Positions 13,134-17,104 of a stretch of 64,000 nucleotides of DNA are shown here, one piece after another. The notes under the pieces were generated by a model. That model did no database searches, was not told the DNA's origin, and was given only the letters and a program-made list of their open reading frames with translations. Every line of letters begins with the position of its first letter. The stretch's first letter is position 1. A program made the position numbers and the translations under genes. The stretch comes from Thermodesulfobacteriota bacterium (GTDB taxonomy: Bacteria > Desulfobacterota > Desulfobacteria > Desulfobacterales > SURF-7), in contig JBMORA010000035.1 of the NCBI GenBank assembly GCA_049320885.1, positions 39,054 through 103,053 of the forward strand, in the 5' to 3' direction.

Positions 13134-13164
13134 GGTCATATATGACCATTGGTTACATATGACC
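13134..13164. promoter_or_regulatory. Tandem 14-bp palindromes, candidate activator-binding site (UAS) copy 1
   Basis: GGTCATATATGACC (13134-13147, perfect palindrome), ATT, GGTTACATATGACC (13151-13164). Nearly identical to 17074-17104. Lies ~100 bp upstream of a -24/-12-like motif. Confidence 0.55.
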
Positions 13165-13265
13165 CGGTCGATCAAGTTGTTTCTACCGGCCCCGCTGAAA
13201 ACGAGAAAATGAATTGTTTATAGATATCAAAACGATGTTTTATCAAAACGATTATATTTAACATT

Positions 13266-13280
13266 CGGCATGAAGTTTGA
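13266..13280 (+). promoter_or_regulatory. Sigma54-like promoter with a non-canonical -12 element, upstream of the KH gene
   Basis: CGGCATGAAGTTTGA has the spacing of TGGCAC-N5-TTGC but carries TTGA in place of TTGC. The same variant occurs at 16963-16977 on the other strand. It lies 100 nt before the ATG at 13380. Confidence 0.4.
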
Positions 13281-13379
13281 TTACCTAAATGAATGACTGC
13301 ATGCTGGTTATTGCAGGACTCGTTTTGTCGGCTCCACATGACTTATACTTTCGATCCGTGGGAGAAAAAGAGGTGCGCC

Positions 13380-13610
13380 ATGAAACAACTGATAGAAATC
13401 ATTGCCCGAGAGCTGGTTGATGAACCGAATGTCGTATCTATTACAGAAGTTGGGGGGATGTACACATCCATTCTAGAGCTGCGGGTCGCAAAATCGGATA
13501 TCGGCAAGATAATCGGCAAAAATGGTCGGACCGTCAGTGCGCTGCGGACCATCATCAGCGCTGTTTCTGCAAAAGGAAAAAAGCGCACGGTCCTTGAAAT
13601 CCTTGAATAG
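13380..13610 (+). CDS. KH-domain RNA-binding protein (YlqC/UPF0109-like)
   Basis: 76 aa, MKQLIEIIARELVDEPNVVSITEVGG...ILELRVAKSDIGKIIGKNGRTVSALRTIISAV, with the GxxG loop (GKNG). SD GAGAAAAAGAGG upstream. The longer listed ORF from 13293 is not needed. Confidence 0.8.
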   Translation: MKQLIEIIARELVDEPNVVSITEVGGMYTSILELRVAKSDIGKIIGKNGRTVSALRTIISAVSAKGKKRTVLEILE

Positions 13611-13644
13611 CGCAAACATCCTGAAATACCGGGAGGTGGGAGCA

Positions 13645-13980
13645 ATGATCATCGTCAGAATTACAATGAGCGTACTTTCGGAAAAACAGAAAGAGCTGGT
13701 GCAGACCCTGCTCTCCATGATGGCGCCGTTGAAAGAAGAAGCCGGATGCCGGAGCTACGCCCTCTTTTGTGACATCGAGGATAAAAATCTGTTGACGCTT
13801 CTCGAAGAGTGGCGAACAAGAAAAGAGCTGGATCATCACTTGCGATCTGAAATGTTCGGCGTTCTGCTGGGAACGAAGAGTCTTTTAAACGAACCGCATG
13901 GAATTCATATCTACACCATTCAACAATCCGAAGGGGCGGAGGCCGTCCTGGCCGCGAGGGGCAAAAATATCGCCCCGTGA
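13645..13980 (+). CDS. ABM (antibiotic-biosynthesis-monooxygenase)-like small protein
   Basis: 111 aa, MIIVRITMSV...KQKELVQTLLSMMAPLKEEAGCRSYALFCDIEDKNLLTLLEEWRTRKELDHHLRS, the ferredoxin-like ABM/Dabb pattern. SD GGGAGGTGGG upstream. Confidence 0.6.
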   Translation: MIIVRITMSVLSEKQKELVQTLLSMMAPLKEEAGCRSYALFCDIEDKNLLTLLEEWRTRKELDHHLRSEMFGVLLGTKSLLNEPHGIHIYTIQQSEGAEAVLAARGKNIAP

Positions 13981-14230
13981 TCCCATGGGCATTGAAAGGC
14001 AGGGGTCTGAATTCAATCTCCACAAAACAACGAACCGCTGCCGGTACATCAATGAATAACGAGCAGATGGAAGATAAACGCAAAACAAAAAGCAGGCTGA
14101 TCAGTGAGCGGAACCCTGCAATATGCGGCGTGCATTTGGATTTGGCCTTGGCGAGCCATCACGAACGGAATTTGTGCATTCATATTCATTCAGGAAGAAT
14201 TTTCGCTCTGCTCCATTTTCATTTTTCCTC

Positions 14231-14605
14231 TCATCCTTTAGAGTCCGAATACAGAAAACCGGCAGTCGCTTTTTCAAGAGTCTGAAAAGTTAATGGTTTC
14301 GACAATACCAGATCGACATTTTCGTGTTTTGTTTTTCGCGATTCAAGGTCTTCAATCACACTGCCGGTTATCATGATCACCGGCGTATCCGGAGACTTTT
14401 GCTTTATACGTTTGGCTAGGATATACCCGTCCATCACCGGCATATACAAGTCCGTGGTTACAAGGTCGAATGGTGTTTGAGCAAACAGCCGCAACGCTTC
14501 CGACCCATTGAAGGCCGTCCTCACTTCATGCCCCATGTTACGGAGCATTTCAGACAGGACATCGCGCGATATTTGTTGATCATCCGTGACTAAAATGGTT
14601 GCCAT
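14231..14605 (-). CDS. Single-domain response regulator (REC)
   Basis: MATILVTDDQQISRDVLSEMLRNMGHEVRTAFNGSEALRL...FDLVTTDLYMPVMDGYILAKRIK...PVIMITGS. Start set at the internal ATG 14605. Confidence 0.85.
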   Translation of the reverse strand: MATILVTDDQQISRDVLSEMLRNMGHEVRTAFNGSEALRLFAQTPFDLVTTDLYMPVMDGYILAKRIKQKSPDTPVIMITGSVIEDLESRKTKHENVDLVLSKPLTFQTLEKATAGFLYSDSKG

Positions 14606-14667
14606 TCGGGTCCCCTTTGTTTGTAACAGTAAGTAAACCGTGCGTCCGGCAGCGACATTCATTTGGC

Positions 14668-15027
14668 TCATCGGCACTCTAAAACCGGTAATTTTTCAAA
14701 CAGGTCGATGCCGTCAAAGAGCAGCTCAATCGAACCGTCGCCCTTGGAATCATATAAATCCATGACGGATTCGGCGATTCTGATTGCATGGGGCGCGATG
14801 GGAAACAAGTTGCGGGTCCGCAGGGTCGCGACCAATGTCGCCATCCCCTCCCGAATGGAAGACAAAATAGCCGAACCTTCATACGTTTCTTCGCAGAGAA
14901 AAGAAAACGTTTCTTTGCACGCCATCGAAGAGCCTGTTTTCCTCAGCGCCCGTTGGATGATTGCATATTCTTTGATATTGAGCTTATTATTTAAACTTTC
15001 CCGGGAGATAAGAAATTTTTGTCGCAT
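14668..15027 (-). CDS. Hypothetical protein, co-oriented with groEL and REC
   Basis: 119 aa from MRQKFLISRESLNNKLNIKEYAIIQRALRKTG... The start at 15027 has GGAG 8 nt upstream. I recognise no family. Confidence 0.45.
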   Translation of the reverse strand: MRQKFLISRESLNNKLNIKEYAIIQRALRKTGSSMACKETFSFLCEETYEGSAILSSIREGMATLVATLRTRNLFPIAPHAIRIAESVMDLYDSKGDGSIELLFDGIDLFEKLPVLECR

Positions 15028-15067
15028 GCATTTTCTCCGTTTCATCCGGTTTCAATTGCAAATACGC

Positions 15068-15220
15068 TCATGGATTTTCGCCATCATCATGAGAAGGATT
15101 TGGTTCATCTTCCGGTTTTATGGTTTTACTATCCCGCTTGTTTTGTCGCTTTTGTTCTTTTTTTTCTTTTCTGGCCAGTTCTTTCTGGCGTTTTTTAAAT
15201 TGAAAATTGGTTTTCGCCAA
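15068..15220 (-). CDS. Candidate small basic protein (50 aa, TTG start), absent from the ORF track
   Basis: Hand translation of the minus strand gives (M)AKTNFQFKKRQKELARKEKKEQKRQNKRDSKTIKPEDEPNPSHDDGENP*. It is preceded by GGAGGAGGGGCAGCA and fills the groEL-to-hypothetical gap exactly. Confidence 0.35.
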   Translation of the reverse strand: MAKTNFQFKKRQKELARKEKKEQKRQNKRDSKTIKPEDEPNPSHDDGENP

Positions 15221-15271
15221 TGCTGCCCCTCCTCCGTTGGTTTTGTTGCCTGTAAAAATGGGCTGAACATT

Positions 15272-16855
15272 TTATGGTTTGCGATGAGCGTCGGCGATCA
15301 TCGCTTCGGTTGTCAGCATCAGGCCGGCAACCGATGCGGCATTCTGGATGGTGAAGCGCACCACCTTGGTCGGATCGATGACGCCTGTCGTCCAGAGGTG
15401 TTCATAGGTTTCGCTCAGGGCATTGAAGCCATAATCATCCACGCCTTCGCGCACCTTGTTGAGCACCACGGCCCCTTCATGCCCGGCGTTTCGGGCAATT
15501 TGCCGCAGCGGTTCCGTCAGGGCGCGCTTCAAGATGGCGAGTCCGCCTTTTTCCTCACCCTTGGCGTTGATGGTTTCCAATACCGTAAGGCATCTCACCA
15601 ACGCCACACCGCCGCCGGGAACAATTCCCTCTTCCACAGCTGCCCGGGTGGCGTTCACGGCGTCTTCGATCCGCGCTTTCTTCTCCTTCATCTCGATTTC
15701 CGTGGCCGCGCCGATGTTGATGACCGCAACCCCGCCGATGATCTTGGCCAACCGTTCGTGCAGCTTTTCGCGGTCGTAGTCGGAGTCGCTCGCCTCGATC
15801 TGGGAACGGATCTGCTTGACGCGGCTTTCAATGGCGGCCTTGGAGCCGGCGCCGCCCACGATGGTGGTGTTGTCCTTATCGATTTTCACTGTCTTGCAGC
15901 TCCCCAGATCCTTGGCTTTGATATTTTCCAGCTTGAGGCCCAGGTCGTCGGAGATCACCTGACCGCCGGTAAGGCTGGCGATATCCTCCAGCAAGGCCTT
16001 GCGCCGGTCGCCGAAGCCGGGCGCTTTCACGGCGGCCACCTTCAAGATTCCGCGCAATTTGTTGACGATGAGGGTGGCCAGGGCTTCCCGCTCCACATCC
16101 TCTGAGATGATCAGCAGCGACTTGCCGGACTTGGCCACCTCTTCGAGCAGGGGCATCAGGTCCTTCATCATGGCGATCTTTGCTTCATGGATCAGGATGT
16201 ACGGTTCATCGAGCATAGCCGTCATTTTTTCGGAATCCGTTACAAAGTAGGGCGACAGATAGCCCTTGTCGAATTGCATGCCCTCGACGACTTCCAGGGT
16301 GGTTTCCATGCTTTTGGCTTCTTCAACCGTGATCACCCCCTCCTTGCCCACCTTGTCCATGGCATCCGAGATCAGCTTGCCGATGGTTTCATCACCGTTG
16401 GCCGAAATGGTGCCGACCTGTTCGATCTCTTTTTTGCCCTGGATGGGCTTGGACAATTTTTTCAGCTCCGCCACGACAGCCGCGACGCCTTTGTCGATGC
16501 CGCGTTTCAAGTCCATGGGGTTGAAGCCGGCGGCCACCAGCTTCTGACCCTCGCTGTAAATGGCCTGGGCCAGAACCGTTGCCGTGGTGGTCCCGTCGCC
16601 GGCCGTATCGTTGGTTTTGCTGGCGACCTCCTTGACCATCTGGGCGCCCATGTTCCAGAACCTGTCTTCCAGTTCGATTTCCCTGGCCACGGTCACGCCG
16701 TCCTTGGTCACCGTGGGGGCCCCATAGGAAGCCGACAATACGACATTGTTTCCCCTCGGCCCCAGCGTCACCTTGACGACATCGGACAACGCGTTGACGC
16801 CCTGAAGTATCGACTCGCGCGCTTTCATACCGTATACAATCGTTTTTCCGGACAT
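15272..16855 (-). CDS. groEL: Chaperonin GroEL paralog, with no adjacent groES and no C-terminal GGM tail
   Basis: 527 aa. [14 protein letters not shown]...[15 protein letters not shown]...[18 protein letters not shown]...[43 protein letters not shown]. It ends ...[13 protein letters not shown]. Confidence 0.95.
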
Positions 16856-16962
16856 CTCTTTTTCCCTCTTGTTATGATACGGATCATATACCGAACAGCT
16901 TGAACGGGATATTTTCCGGATGCGGTATATTCTGAATTGAGGCTTTCAGGCATTCTTTATAG

Positions 16963-16977
16963 TCAAGGTTTATGCCA
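16963..16977 (-). promoter_or_regulatory. Sigma54-like promoter with a non-canonical -12 element, upstream of groEL
   Basis: The minus strand reads TGGCATAAACCTTGA. GG and the TTGA are at the canonical -24/-12 spacing. It lies ~108 nt before the groEL ATG (16855). Confidence 0.4.
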
Positions 16978-17073
16978 ATATGGGTACAACCGGCTTAATT
17001 AAAAAATTGTTATGATATCAATATGTTTATTATTTGAAAGACGGTTGCCGGGAGAAGACGGGACACAAAGCAA

Positions 17074-17104
17074 GGTCATATATGACCATTGGTCATATAT
17101 GACC
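17074..17104. promoter_or_regulatory. Tandem 14-bp palindromes, candidate activator-binding site (UAS) copy 2
   Basis: GGTCATATATGACC (17074-17087), ATT, GGTCATATATGACC (17091-17104). It lies ~97 bp upstream (minus-strand sense) of the promoter-like motif at 16963-16977. Confidence 0.55.

Follow-up and report, generated by a model that had tools for sequence, protein, structure and literature searches.

In the XylR/Pu, DmpR/Po and NifA/nifH systems, paired upstream activating sequences (UASs) lie at about -120 to -180 and an integration host factor (IHF) bend lies at about -50 to -80, ahead of a -24/-12 promoter. The positioning of these parts depends on the helix face. The same three-part UAS-IHF-promoter geometry is predicted twice, with a less clear IHF-like part in the second copy, in a stretch of 64,000 nucleotides from a Thermodesulfobacteriota bacterium of the Desulfobacterales (contig JBMORA010000035.1, positions 39,054 to 103,053), which is called the window here. 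The first copy faces an operon for a KH-domain and an ABM-domain protein on the plus strand, and the second faces a convergent operon on the minus strand that begins with a GroEL paralog. It is very probable that both operons are controlled by an activator-UAS-IHF-sigma-54 circuit with the adjacent PAS-AAA+-helix-turn-helix (HTH) activator. Such a circuit is conventional and enhancer-dependent in kind, and its regulon is apparently undescribed. The literature searched, including the D. vulgaris sigma-54 regulome, a 2025 cross-phylum sigma-54 survey and the OrpR study, gave no description of the palindrome or the regulator. In contrast to XylR, DmpR and NifA, where the sensor is V4R or GAF, the sensor here is PAS. 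The UAS sequence and the regulon also differ, and the -12 element is systematically TTGA here.

The closest characterised analogue is OrpR of D. vulgaris Hildenborough. It belongs to the same phylum and is a single-component PAS-AAA+-HTH bacterial enhancer-binding protein (bEBP) with a palindromic site upstream of two adjacent operons. With IHF and sigma-54, OrpR drives the two operons beside its own gene, and its regulon consists of those two operons only (PMC8359166). Its PAS domain holds a [4Fe-4S] cluster through C52, C61 and C65 and is a negative gate on the ATPase (PMC8359166). An OrpR-type redox sensor is not seen in the window activator, whose PAS domain lacks cysteine, in contrast to the three ligating cysteines of OrpR. 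Residues 1-238 contain no Cys at all, and no PAS cysteine is conserved among the orthologs. The window also differs from the OrpR locus in its convergent operons, its tandem site of AT-cored palindromes and a predicted regulon of many operons per genome.

A preliminary description, made from the DNA alone, had reported a 31-bp site twice in the window, and both positions were verified on the sequence. Site 1 reads GGTCATATATGACC-ATT-GGTTACATATGACC and site 2 reads GGTCATATATGACC-ATT-GGTCATATATGACC. Site 1 begins at the 119th nucleotide past the stop codon of the activator gene (13015), also as described, and its centre lies at about -143 relative to the predicted P1 start. Site 2 is enclosed by a 39-nt perfect inverted repeat (17070-17108). 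At two or fewer mismatches, the 14-mer has four copies in the window, which are the two tandem pairs, where about 0.17 copies are expected from the base composition. The palindromes occur as pairs with a 17-bp offset in nine of the nine sources checked, and extra near-matches to the 14-mer were seen in L027 only (the labels L001-L053 denote fetched loci). Counterparts of site 1 also follow the orthologous activator genes of L002, L003, L004 and other loci. Site 2 is the ortholog of the site ahead of a groEL-containing operon in L017 and L049.

The arrangement of site and promoter is conserved across genomes. The first three loci fetched via activator homologs (L002-L004) all have the tandem site and, about 100 nt on, (C/T)GGCA(T/C)GAAGTTTGA. 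When 185,579 species genomes were scanned once with an exact pattern, 46 loci were returned, almost all of them in metagenome-assembled genomes of Desulfobacterales/Desulfobulbales, and 47 non-redundant sites were compared. The site is present in the complete genomes CP070746.1, OY781976.1 and NZ_CAXXXH010000001.1. A -24/-12-like element starts 97-104 nt from the site end in 45 of these 47 (mode 102) and at 88 nt in the other two. The background for such an element in the 97-104 nt interval is 0.5% of random anchors in the same DNA. Over dozens of promoters, the UAS-promoter spacing is constant within about +/-3 bp. This phylogenetic footprint (45/47 against 0.5%) argues strongly for the earlier proposal that one enhancer and -24/-12 design serves both convergent operons. 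A common repeat unrelated to sigma-54, which had been named as a refuting case, does not fit four copies in 64 kb and 45 of 47 sites near a -24/-12 element.

The sequence of the promoter-like element is conserved together with its position. The logo of the -24 element across the related promoters is TGGCAY. The -13/-12 dinucleotide is GA at 41 of the 47 sites and GC at 6, and the TTGA deviation that the two window promoters were said to share is therefore family-wide. In 457 kb, 29 copies of TGGCAY-N5-TTGA lie close to tandem sites and 5 lie away from them; for the TTGC form, these numbers are 2 and 5. Near-identical 15-mers to that of P1 are found upstream of KH/ABM genes in L002, L003, L033 and L048. 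The P2 ortholog, TGGCACGAACCTTGA, is present in L017 and L049, and the 15-mer of P2 itself is undamaged, with a score of 13/13 against the family consensus. Three site-bearing contigs of 6 kb or less (L032, L047 and L050) are binned as Methanobacteriota, Sumerlaeota and Alphaproteobacteria. As they are short and carry typical regulon genes, they are probably misbinned rather than signs of cross-phylum spread.

In the window, 102 nt (P1) and 97 nt (P2) separate the end of the tandem site from the start of the promoter element, and each element faces a gene. The motif coordinates and the distance of about 100 bp given before agree with these values. CGGCAT (13266-13271, P1) and TGGCAT (16977-16972, P2) place GG at -24/-25, and exactly 10 nt separate this GG from the G of the -12 element in both promoters. 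The -12 element itself departs from TTGCW, with GA replacing GC to give TTGA. GGCAT-N5-TTGA has two matches in the 64 kb, at 13267-13280 (+) and 16963-16976 (-). About one match is expected in the window, and the count of two is not significant by itself; the significance of the pair comes from the position relative to the tandem sites. The previously suggested scan for GGCAT-N6-TTGA gave 0 matches, the true spacer being N5. A generic scan for TGGCAC-N5-TTGCW with two mismatches gave 25 matches against 31 in shuffles and is therefore uninformative alone.

A -12 element of the form TTGA is unusual but not unprecedented. For P. putida sigma-54, TTGAAT has been reported as one of the -12 motifs that function in vitro (PMC11997794). 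The same window also contains a canonical sigma-54 promoter, TGGCACTCCTCTTGCG (TGGCAC-N5-TTGC), 137 nt upstream of an MCP gene, so that the -12 A belongs to the regulon and not to the organism. An exact IHF consensus, AATCAATATATTA, lies just upstream of the MCP-gene promoter (window 48640-48698, +). The genes near it (43509-50964) include a REC-AAA+ activator, with no HTH_8 match listed, and a Cache/PAS hybrid kinase, which make an NtrC-type two-component pair. A third match, of the form GGCAC-N5-TTGA (CGGCACTCAGCTTGA, 17132-17146, +), faces an open reading frame (ORF) for a Fic fragment at 17206. It is probably a chance match, because its distance of 28 nt to site 2 is too short for enhancer looping.

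It is extremely unlikely that TTGAYTA is the -35 box of a sigma-70-type promoter, or that the palindromes are terminators or REP-like repeats. The GC at -12 is missing, and TTGACT and TTGATT resemble TTGACA. However, a sigma-70 scan gave no promoter at either position, and GGCA at exactly N5 from TTGA is kept in at least 41 promoters, which a -35 box does not need. A terminator scan flags the 39-nt inverted repeat around site 2 and the single palindromes as hairpins, but a proper T-run is missing after these hairpins, and upstream of site 2 there is no end of a minus-strand gene. The sites lie ahead of genes and not behind them, at a fixed geometry, and they have 0 viral matches and four copies in 64 kb, unlike a repeat. 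An intrinsic terminator was also rejected as a candidate in its own right, since the T-run is inadequate and no gene end is present on the relevant strand. The same holds for a dispersed repeat (REP/MITE), since there are two tandem pairs only in 64 kb, at a position fixed upstream of promoters. A phage element was ruled out by a search of viral contigs for the tandem site, which gave 0 matches.

A further conserved feature had been overlooked in the preliminary description. In the promoter-anchored alignment, an IHF consensus-type element, WATCARNNNNTTR, is conserved between enhancer and promoter. It is found at one or no mismatch in 38 of the 47 related promoters against a background of 4%, and 30 of the 38 matches start at -41/-40 from YGGCA. 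The IHF-like element of P1 is in register with the element of these 30 promoters. The P1 bend region also contains an exact 12-nt direct repeat, TATCAAAACGAT (13225-13236 and 13241-13252), with 16-bp spacing, which results in two overlapping IHF-like candidates. At P2, an AT-rich region contains several matches with one mismatch, for example TATCAATATGTTT (17016-17028, + strand). The order of the cassette is the 31-bp UAS, about 61 bp, the 13-bp IHF-like element, about 28 bp, and YGGCAY-N5-TTGA. As judged from the sequence, it is the classical geometry of enhancer, bend and promoter.

The activator has an N-terminal PAS domain, a coiled-coil linker, an AAA+ sigma-54 interaction domain and a C-terminal Fis-type HTH, in this order. 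The PAS-AAA+-HTH identity given to it earlier is borne out by Pfam (Sigma54_activat PF00158, E=2e-70; AAA_lid_14; HTH_8, E=2e-10; PAS_4/PAS_9). The AAA+ domain has Walker A (GETGTGKE) at residue 210 and GAFTGA at 257, as in a bEBP, and the Fis-type HTH, at about residues 430-485, co-occurs with a palindrome that it is predicted to bind. Its best relatives in PDB are NifA, ZraR, NtrC1 and FleQ. It falls short of the NCBIfam cut-off for each named bEBP equivalog; the best is FhlA (413 bits against 830), NifA scores 373 against 529, and all matches are limited to the AAA+/HTH part. More than 100 clusters at 90% identity contain proteins 77-83% identical to the activator, most of which are unnamed or from Thermodesulfobacteriota/Deltaproteobacteria. 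In the nearest relative, KH-ABM is followed by a gene (L002, 10506-11432) for a GGDEF protein whose N-terminal PAS is 60% identical to that of the activator. The PAS sensor type would be common to the two proteins, and it may feed c-di-GMP synthesis.

At least 17 independent loci have an ortholog of the activator (64-85% identity) beside the tandem site, which usually lies 100-150 nt past the activator stop codon. L027 encodes two paralogs of the activator, and each has a separate site. The HTH recognition helix AAEILGL(D/N)... is invariant across orthologs of 56-100% overall identity. This linkage and the parallel invariance of the HTH helix and the DNA motif suggest that the activator binds the tandem site. 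It is very unlikely that the tandem palindromes are operators of another DNA-binding protein, with incidental adjacency of the bEBP and a promoter that may or may not be sigma-54-dependent. Many sites are far from any activator gene in the 8-kb fetched loci, the window contains a second bEBP gene (43509-44975), and Desulfobacteria encode very many bEBPs (PMC12316311), all of which would fit such a protein. On the other hand, the recurrent flanking by the same ortholog, the invariant helix that matches an invariant motif, and the paralogs of L027 argue against it. A -24/-12 element at a constant distance of about 100 nt, with an IHF-like site in between, marks an enhancer and not an operator.

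Sequence and comparison establish the anatomy of the cassette, show that it is conserved and link it to the activator gene. They suggest the following mechanism, in which binding, IHF use, start sites and signal are predictions. Sigma-54 holoenzyme would wait in a closed complex on YGGCAY-N5-TTGA. Activator dimers would bind both 14-bp palindromes through the C-terminal Fis-type HTH, at a site whose centre is about 140 bp ahead of the start. The bound oligomer would reach the holoenzyme by means of an IHF-type bend at about -60. The cysteine-free N-terminal PAS would gate the ATPase in response to a signal, and ATP hydrolysis with contact of the GAFTGA loop would open the promoter about 12 nt downstream of TTGA. 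The output would be KH-ABM on the plus strand and GroEL, probably with the small basic protein, the 119-aa protein and REC, on the minus strand. The window circuit would be a local instance of an order-wide Desulfobacterales/Desulfobulbales regulon.

The history of the GroEL side is implied by comparison with relatives. The nearest relative, JBGSLR010000029 (L002 and L017), has the activator-KH-ABM unit and the groEL operon in convergent orientation about 15 kb apart, and the order of the groEL operon in relatives is 66aa-pfkB-pyk-groEL. The 5' leader of groEL in the window contains a remnant of a pyruvate-kinase gene. It is 84% identical to L017 5424-5484 (blastn), and it spans 20-30 codons. 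By tblastn it aligns to residues 313-344 of the pyruvate kinase of the L017 operon (E=7e-8), of which about 313-332 are encoded at 16935-16876. This comparison indicates that the compact form in the window is the product of two deletions and that the GroEL leader is a deletion scar. The ABM-side flank has no remnants of the PtsP and GGDEF genes downstream of ABM; the sole match is the PAS-to-PAS similarity to the activator.

The distances of about 100-108 nt to the start codons (13380 and 16855, 99 and 107 nt past the promoter motifs) and the purine-rich Shine-Dalgarno strings read as described before. Their likeness had been taken as part of the design, which does not hold. Leaders are heterogeneous across loci, and since the GroEL leader is a scar of the pyruvate-kinase deletion, the similar leader lengths and Shine-Dalgarno sequences of the two operons are coincidental.

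It is unlikely that the KH-ABM promoter alone is functional and that the GroEL cassette is a decaying remnant after pfkB/pyk loss, with GroEL and the downstream genes silent or otherwise expressed. The pyruvate-kinase fragment in the leader and the two deletions from the ancestral arrangement are compatible with decay. So are the 97-nt site-promoter spacing, which is at the short edge of the distribution, the degenerate IHF-like element, and the usual csp context of the pair formed by the basic ORF and the 119-aa ORF. However, both palindromes of site 2 are exact, and no more perfect copy is known. Neither the promoter 15-mer nor the GroEL ORF is damaged, GroEL exceeds the equivalog threshold, and it lies behind the same cassette in L017, L049 and L034. 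The GroEL paralogs of L017 and L049 share 88-90% identity with that of the window.

The window copy is a full-length GroEL (818 bits for NCBIfam TIGR02348, cut-off 582), and it is not part of a canonical groESL operon. There is no groES between promoter and groEL, and the C-terminus (...MIADAHRKP) has no GGM tail. In Bradyrhizobium japonicum, groESL3 is a member of a chaperonin family under NifA/sigma-54, with groES present and a nitrogen-fixation/oxygen signal. Like groESL3, one chaperonin paralog here lies behind a predicted sigma-54 enhancer-dependent promoter. In contrast to groESL3, groEL is alone here, and it is co-operonic with pfkB and pyk in relatives.

Several points weigh against the proposed circuit and its extent. 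The -12 C is among the best-conserved positions of the sigma-54 consensus, and it is A in both window promoters. The IHF-like element of P2, the GroEL promoter, is weak or degenerate and less clear than that of P1. Neither rpoN nor the ihf genes are within the 64-kb window, and their presence in the source organism is therefore assumed. The pattern of the genome scan was derived from the site itself, which biases the 47 sites toward well-conserved ones. Operon extents come from crude chains of the ORFs that follow each promoter, which were then clustered and scanned with Pfam, and a general, osmotic or proteotoxic stress regulon is suggested from domain names alone. Elsewhere, the pair of the basic ORF and the 119-aa ORF directly follows a cold-shock-domain (csp) gene, without the cassette. 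Basic ORF, 119-aa ORF and REC are assumed to be co-transcribed with groEL from short gaps and the lack of a terminator.

The module had been described as apparently self-contained, which is not the case. Relatives have several such promoters per genome ahead of many other genes, and a single 110-kb contig of the nearest relative bears three sites. The same cassette lies elsewhere ahead of genes for ABM, KH, SPFH, Hsp20, FtsH, BON, N-ATPase and sugar metabolism. ABM proteins are the commonest member, with homologs in 21 fetched loci, and KhpA-like KH orthologs lie downstream of the cassette in 8 loci. GAF-PtsP is found downstream of KH-ABM in relatives. Other members are SPFH/Band_7 pairs, a 116-aa membrane protein without a Pfam family, Hsp20, FtsH, a BON-domain protein, a Transgly_assoc (YmgE-like) protein, a PRC-barrel protein, and a PLD/cardiolipin-synthase-like protein. 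Further members are a 768-aa GT4 glycosyltransferase with GH130 enzymes, an AMPK1_CBM protein, a GH94 cyclic-glucan synthase, and an operon of PfkB and a gene taken for pyruvate kinase from sequence reading alone. By the same kind of reading, operons in L041 and L026 resemble an ATP-synthase (N-type) cluster. Cassettes with GC at -12 are found in L005, L011, L027 (6034), L031, L046, L020 and L027 (2150). The genes behind them include dsrD, hcp-like genes (hybrid-cluster protein, by eye) and a gene for a 73-aa membrane protein. These cassettes, some with weaker UAS copies, may be a sub-regulon or the targets of a paralogous activator.

A conserved leader RNA was considered and rejected. The predicted 5' untranslated regions of the 47 operons vary in length (18-330 nt) and sequence, and this heterogeneity argues against a common riboregulator. 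An Rfam scan of 11-19 kb at E<=1 matched only a chance snoRNA inside groEL, and so gave no known leader RNA. A subset of promoters has a motif, GAC(A/C)GTTT(A/G)AATTTTT, often followed by AGCAGCC, in the first ~25 nt past the predicted start. It is found in L028, L035, L042, L044, L023, L050, L006, L015, L045 and L004 (9669 site), mostly ahead of genes for ABM or the 116-aa membrane protein, and is absent at both window promoters.

The RpoS regulon of E. coli and the SigB regulon of Bacillus are stress regulons run by alternative sigma factors of the sigma-70 family. The genes behind the cassette have a functional analogy only to these regulons. BON/OsmY-like proteins, YmgE-type Transgly_assoc proteins, small Hsp and PRC-barrel proteins are common in kind, as are compatible-solute and glucan enzymes and the cardiolipin-synthase-like PLD. 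In contrast to RpoS and SigB, the predicted regulators here are an enhancer-binding ATPase and sigma-54. It is conceivable, with a chance somewhat short of even, that the PAS-bEBP is the master regulator of an undescribed order-wide sigma-54 response to general or osmotic stress, whose promoters form a distinct class. This class would be defined by the rigid UAS-61 bp-IHF-28 bp-promoter geometry and a selected -12 A. Such an A could alter the locking of the closed complex in comparison with TTGC promoters, for example in basal leak or in strictness toward the activator. The PAS-diguanylate cyclase fusion inside the regulon in L002 hints at a single signal for transcription and c-di-GMP alike.

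Sulfate reducers of marine and sediment habitats have dozens of bEBPs that are uncharacterised. If the circuit is confirmed, one of the most conserved among them would have a DNA site, a promoter class and a first regulon list. Genes of stress type (chaperonin paralog, Hsp20, FtsH, SPFH and OsmY-like) would be wired to sigma-54 in the order. About 40 natural promoters with a -12 A would be a test bed for closed-complex locking, and the 31-bp site with its fixed spacing would be a specific predictor of the regulon for annotation.

Table. Features of the two convergent operons and their predicted control regions, in positions of the window.
Feature	Position	Strand	Details
PAS-AAA+-HTH enhancer-binding activator, 485 aa	11558..13015	+	Pfam
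Putative UAS 1	13134..13164	no strand	two 14-bp palindromes, centres 17 bp apart
IHF-like element of P1	13225..13237	+	TATCAAAACGATG, 1 mismatch to WATCARNNNNTTR, starts -41 from CGGCA
P1, predicted sigma-54-type promoter	13266..13280	+	CGGCATGAAGTTTGA; predicted start ~13292
KhpA-like KH-domain RNA-binding protein, 76 aa	13380..13610	+	Pfam KH_KhpA-B E=9e-21
ABM-domain protein, 111 aa	13645..13980	+	Pfam ABM E=9e-16
Stand-alone REC-domain protein	14231..14608	-	Pfam Response_reg E=3e-23
hyp119, conserved hypothetical protein, 119 aa	14668..15027	-	65 homologs, 41-71% identity
Small basic-then-acidic protein, 50 aa	15068..15220	-	MAKTNFQFKKRQKELARKEKKEQKRQ...; homologous small ORFs elsewhere
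GroEL paralog, 527 aa	15272..16855	-	Pfam Cpn60_TCP1
Pyruvate-kinase gene remnant in GroEL 5' leader	16876..16935	-	blastn and tblastn
P2, predicted sigma-54-type promoter	16963..16977	-	TGGCATAAACCTTGA; predicted start ~16951
IHF-like AT-rich region of P2	16997..17031	no strand	several 1-mismatch matches, none exact
Putative UAS 2	17074..17104	no strand	two perfect palindromes

The identities of the KH, ABM, GroEL and REC genes proposed earlier were confirmed by Pfam, and the 50-aa and 119-aa ORFs are conserved elsewhere. The hyp119 family has no match in Pfam, NCBIfam or PDB, and the 50-aa ORF has no Pfam match. The two ORFs are a conserved gene pair, in which the 50-aa protein has the pattern xAKxN(F/Y)xFxKRQKELxRKxKKExKRQ (L051, L052 and L053, about 5400-6360; L003, 5317-5799). 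Homologs of the 50-aa ORF lie directly upstream of hyp119 homologs in L051, L052 and L053, and beside a CSD gene in L003. The REC start is perhaps further upstream at 14671, overlapping the hyp119 stop, and the gene is called as 146 aa in L001.

The module had been placed in lower-GC DNA. Its GC content is 0.41-0.50, except for groEL (0.58), and is below that of the left flank (0.62), but the lower GC is not confined to the module and runs on to about 56 kb. A defence/mobile island adjoins the module at 17206-43000. It encodes a Fic C-terminal fragment, two YhcG nucleases, AAA-DUF4143 and HNH proteins, and a type I restriction-modification system with hsdR, PDDEXK_3, hsdM, and hsdS fused to GIY-YIG. 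Further genes of the island are an rve transposase, Schlafen AlbA_2, AbiEi/AbiEii, NERD-UvrD and an ArdC-like gene.

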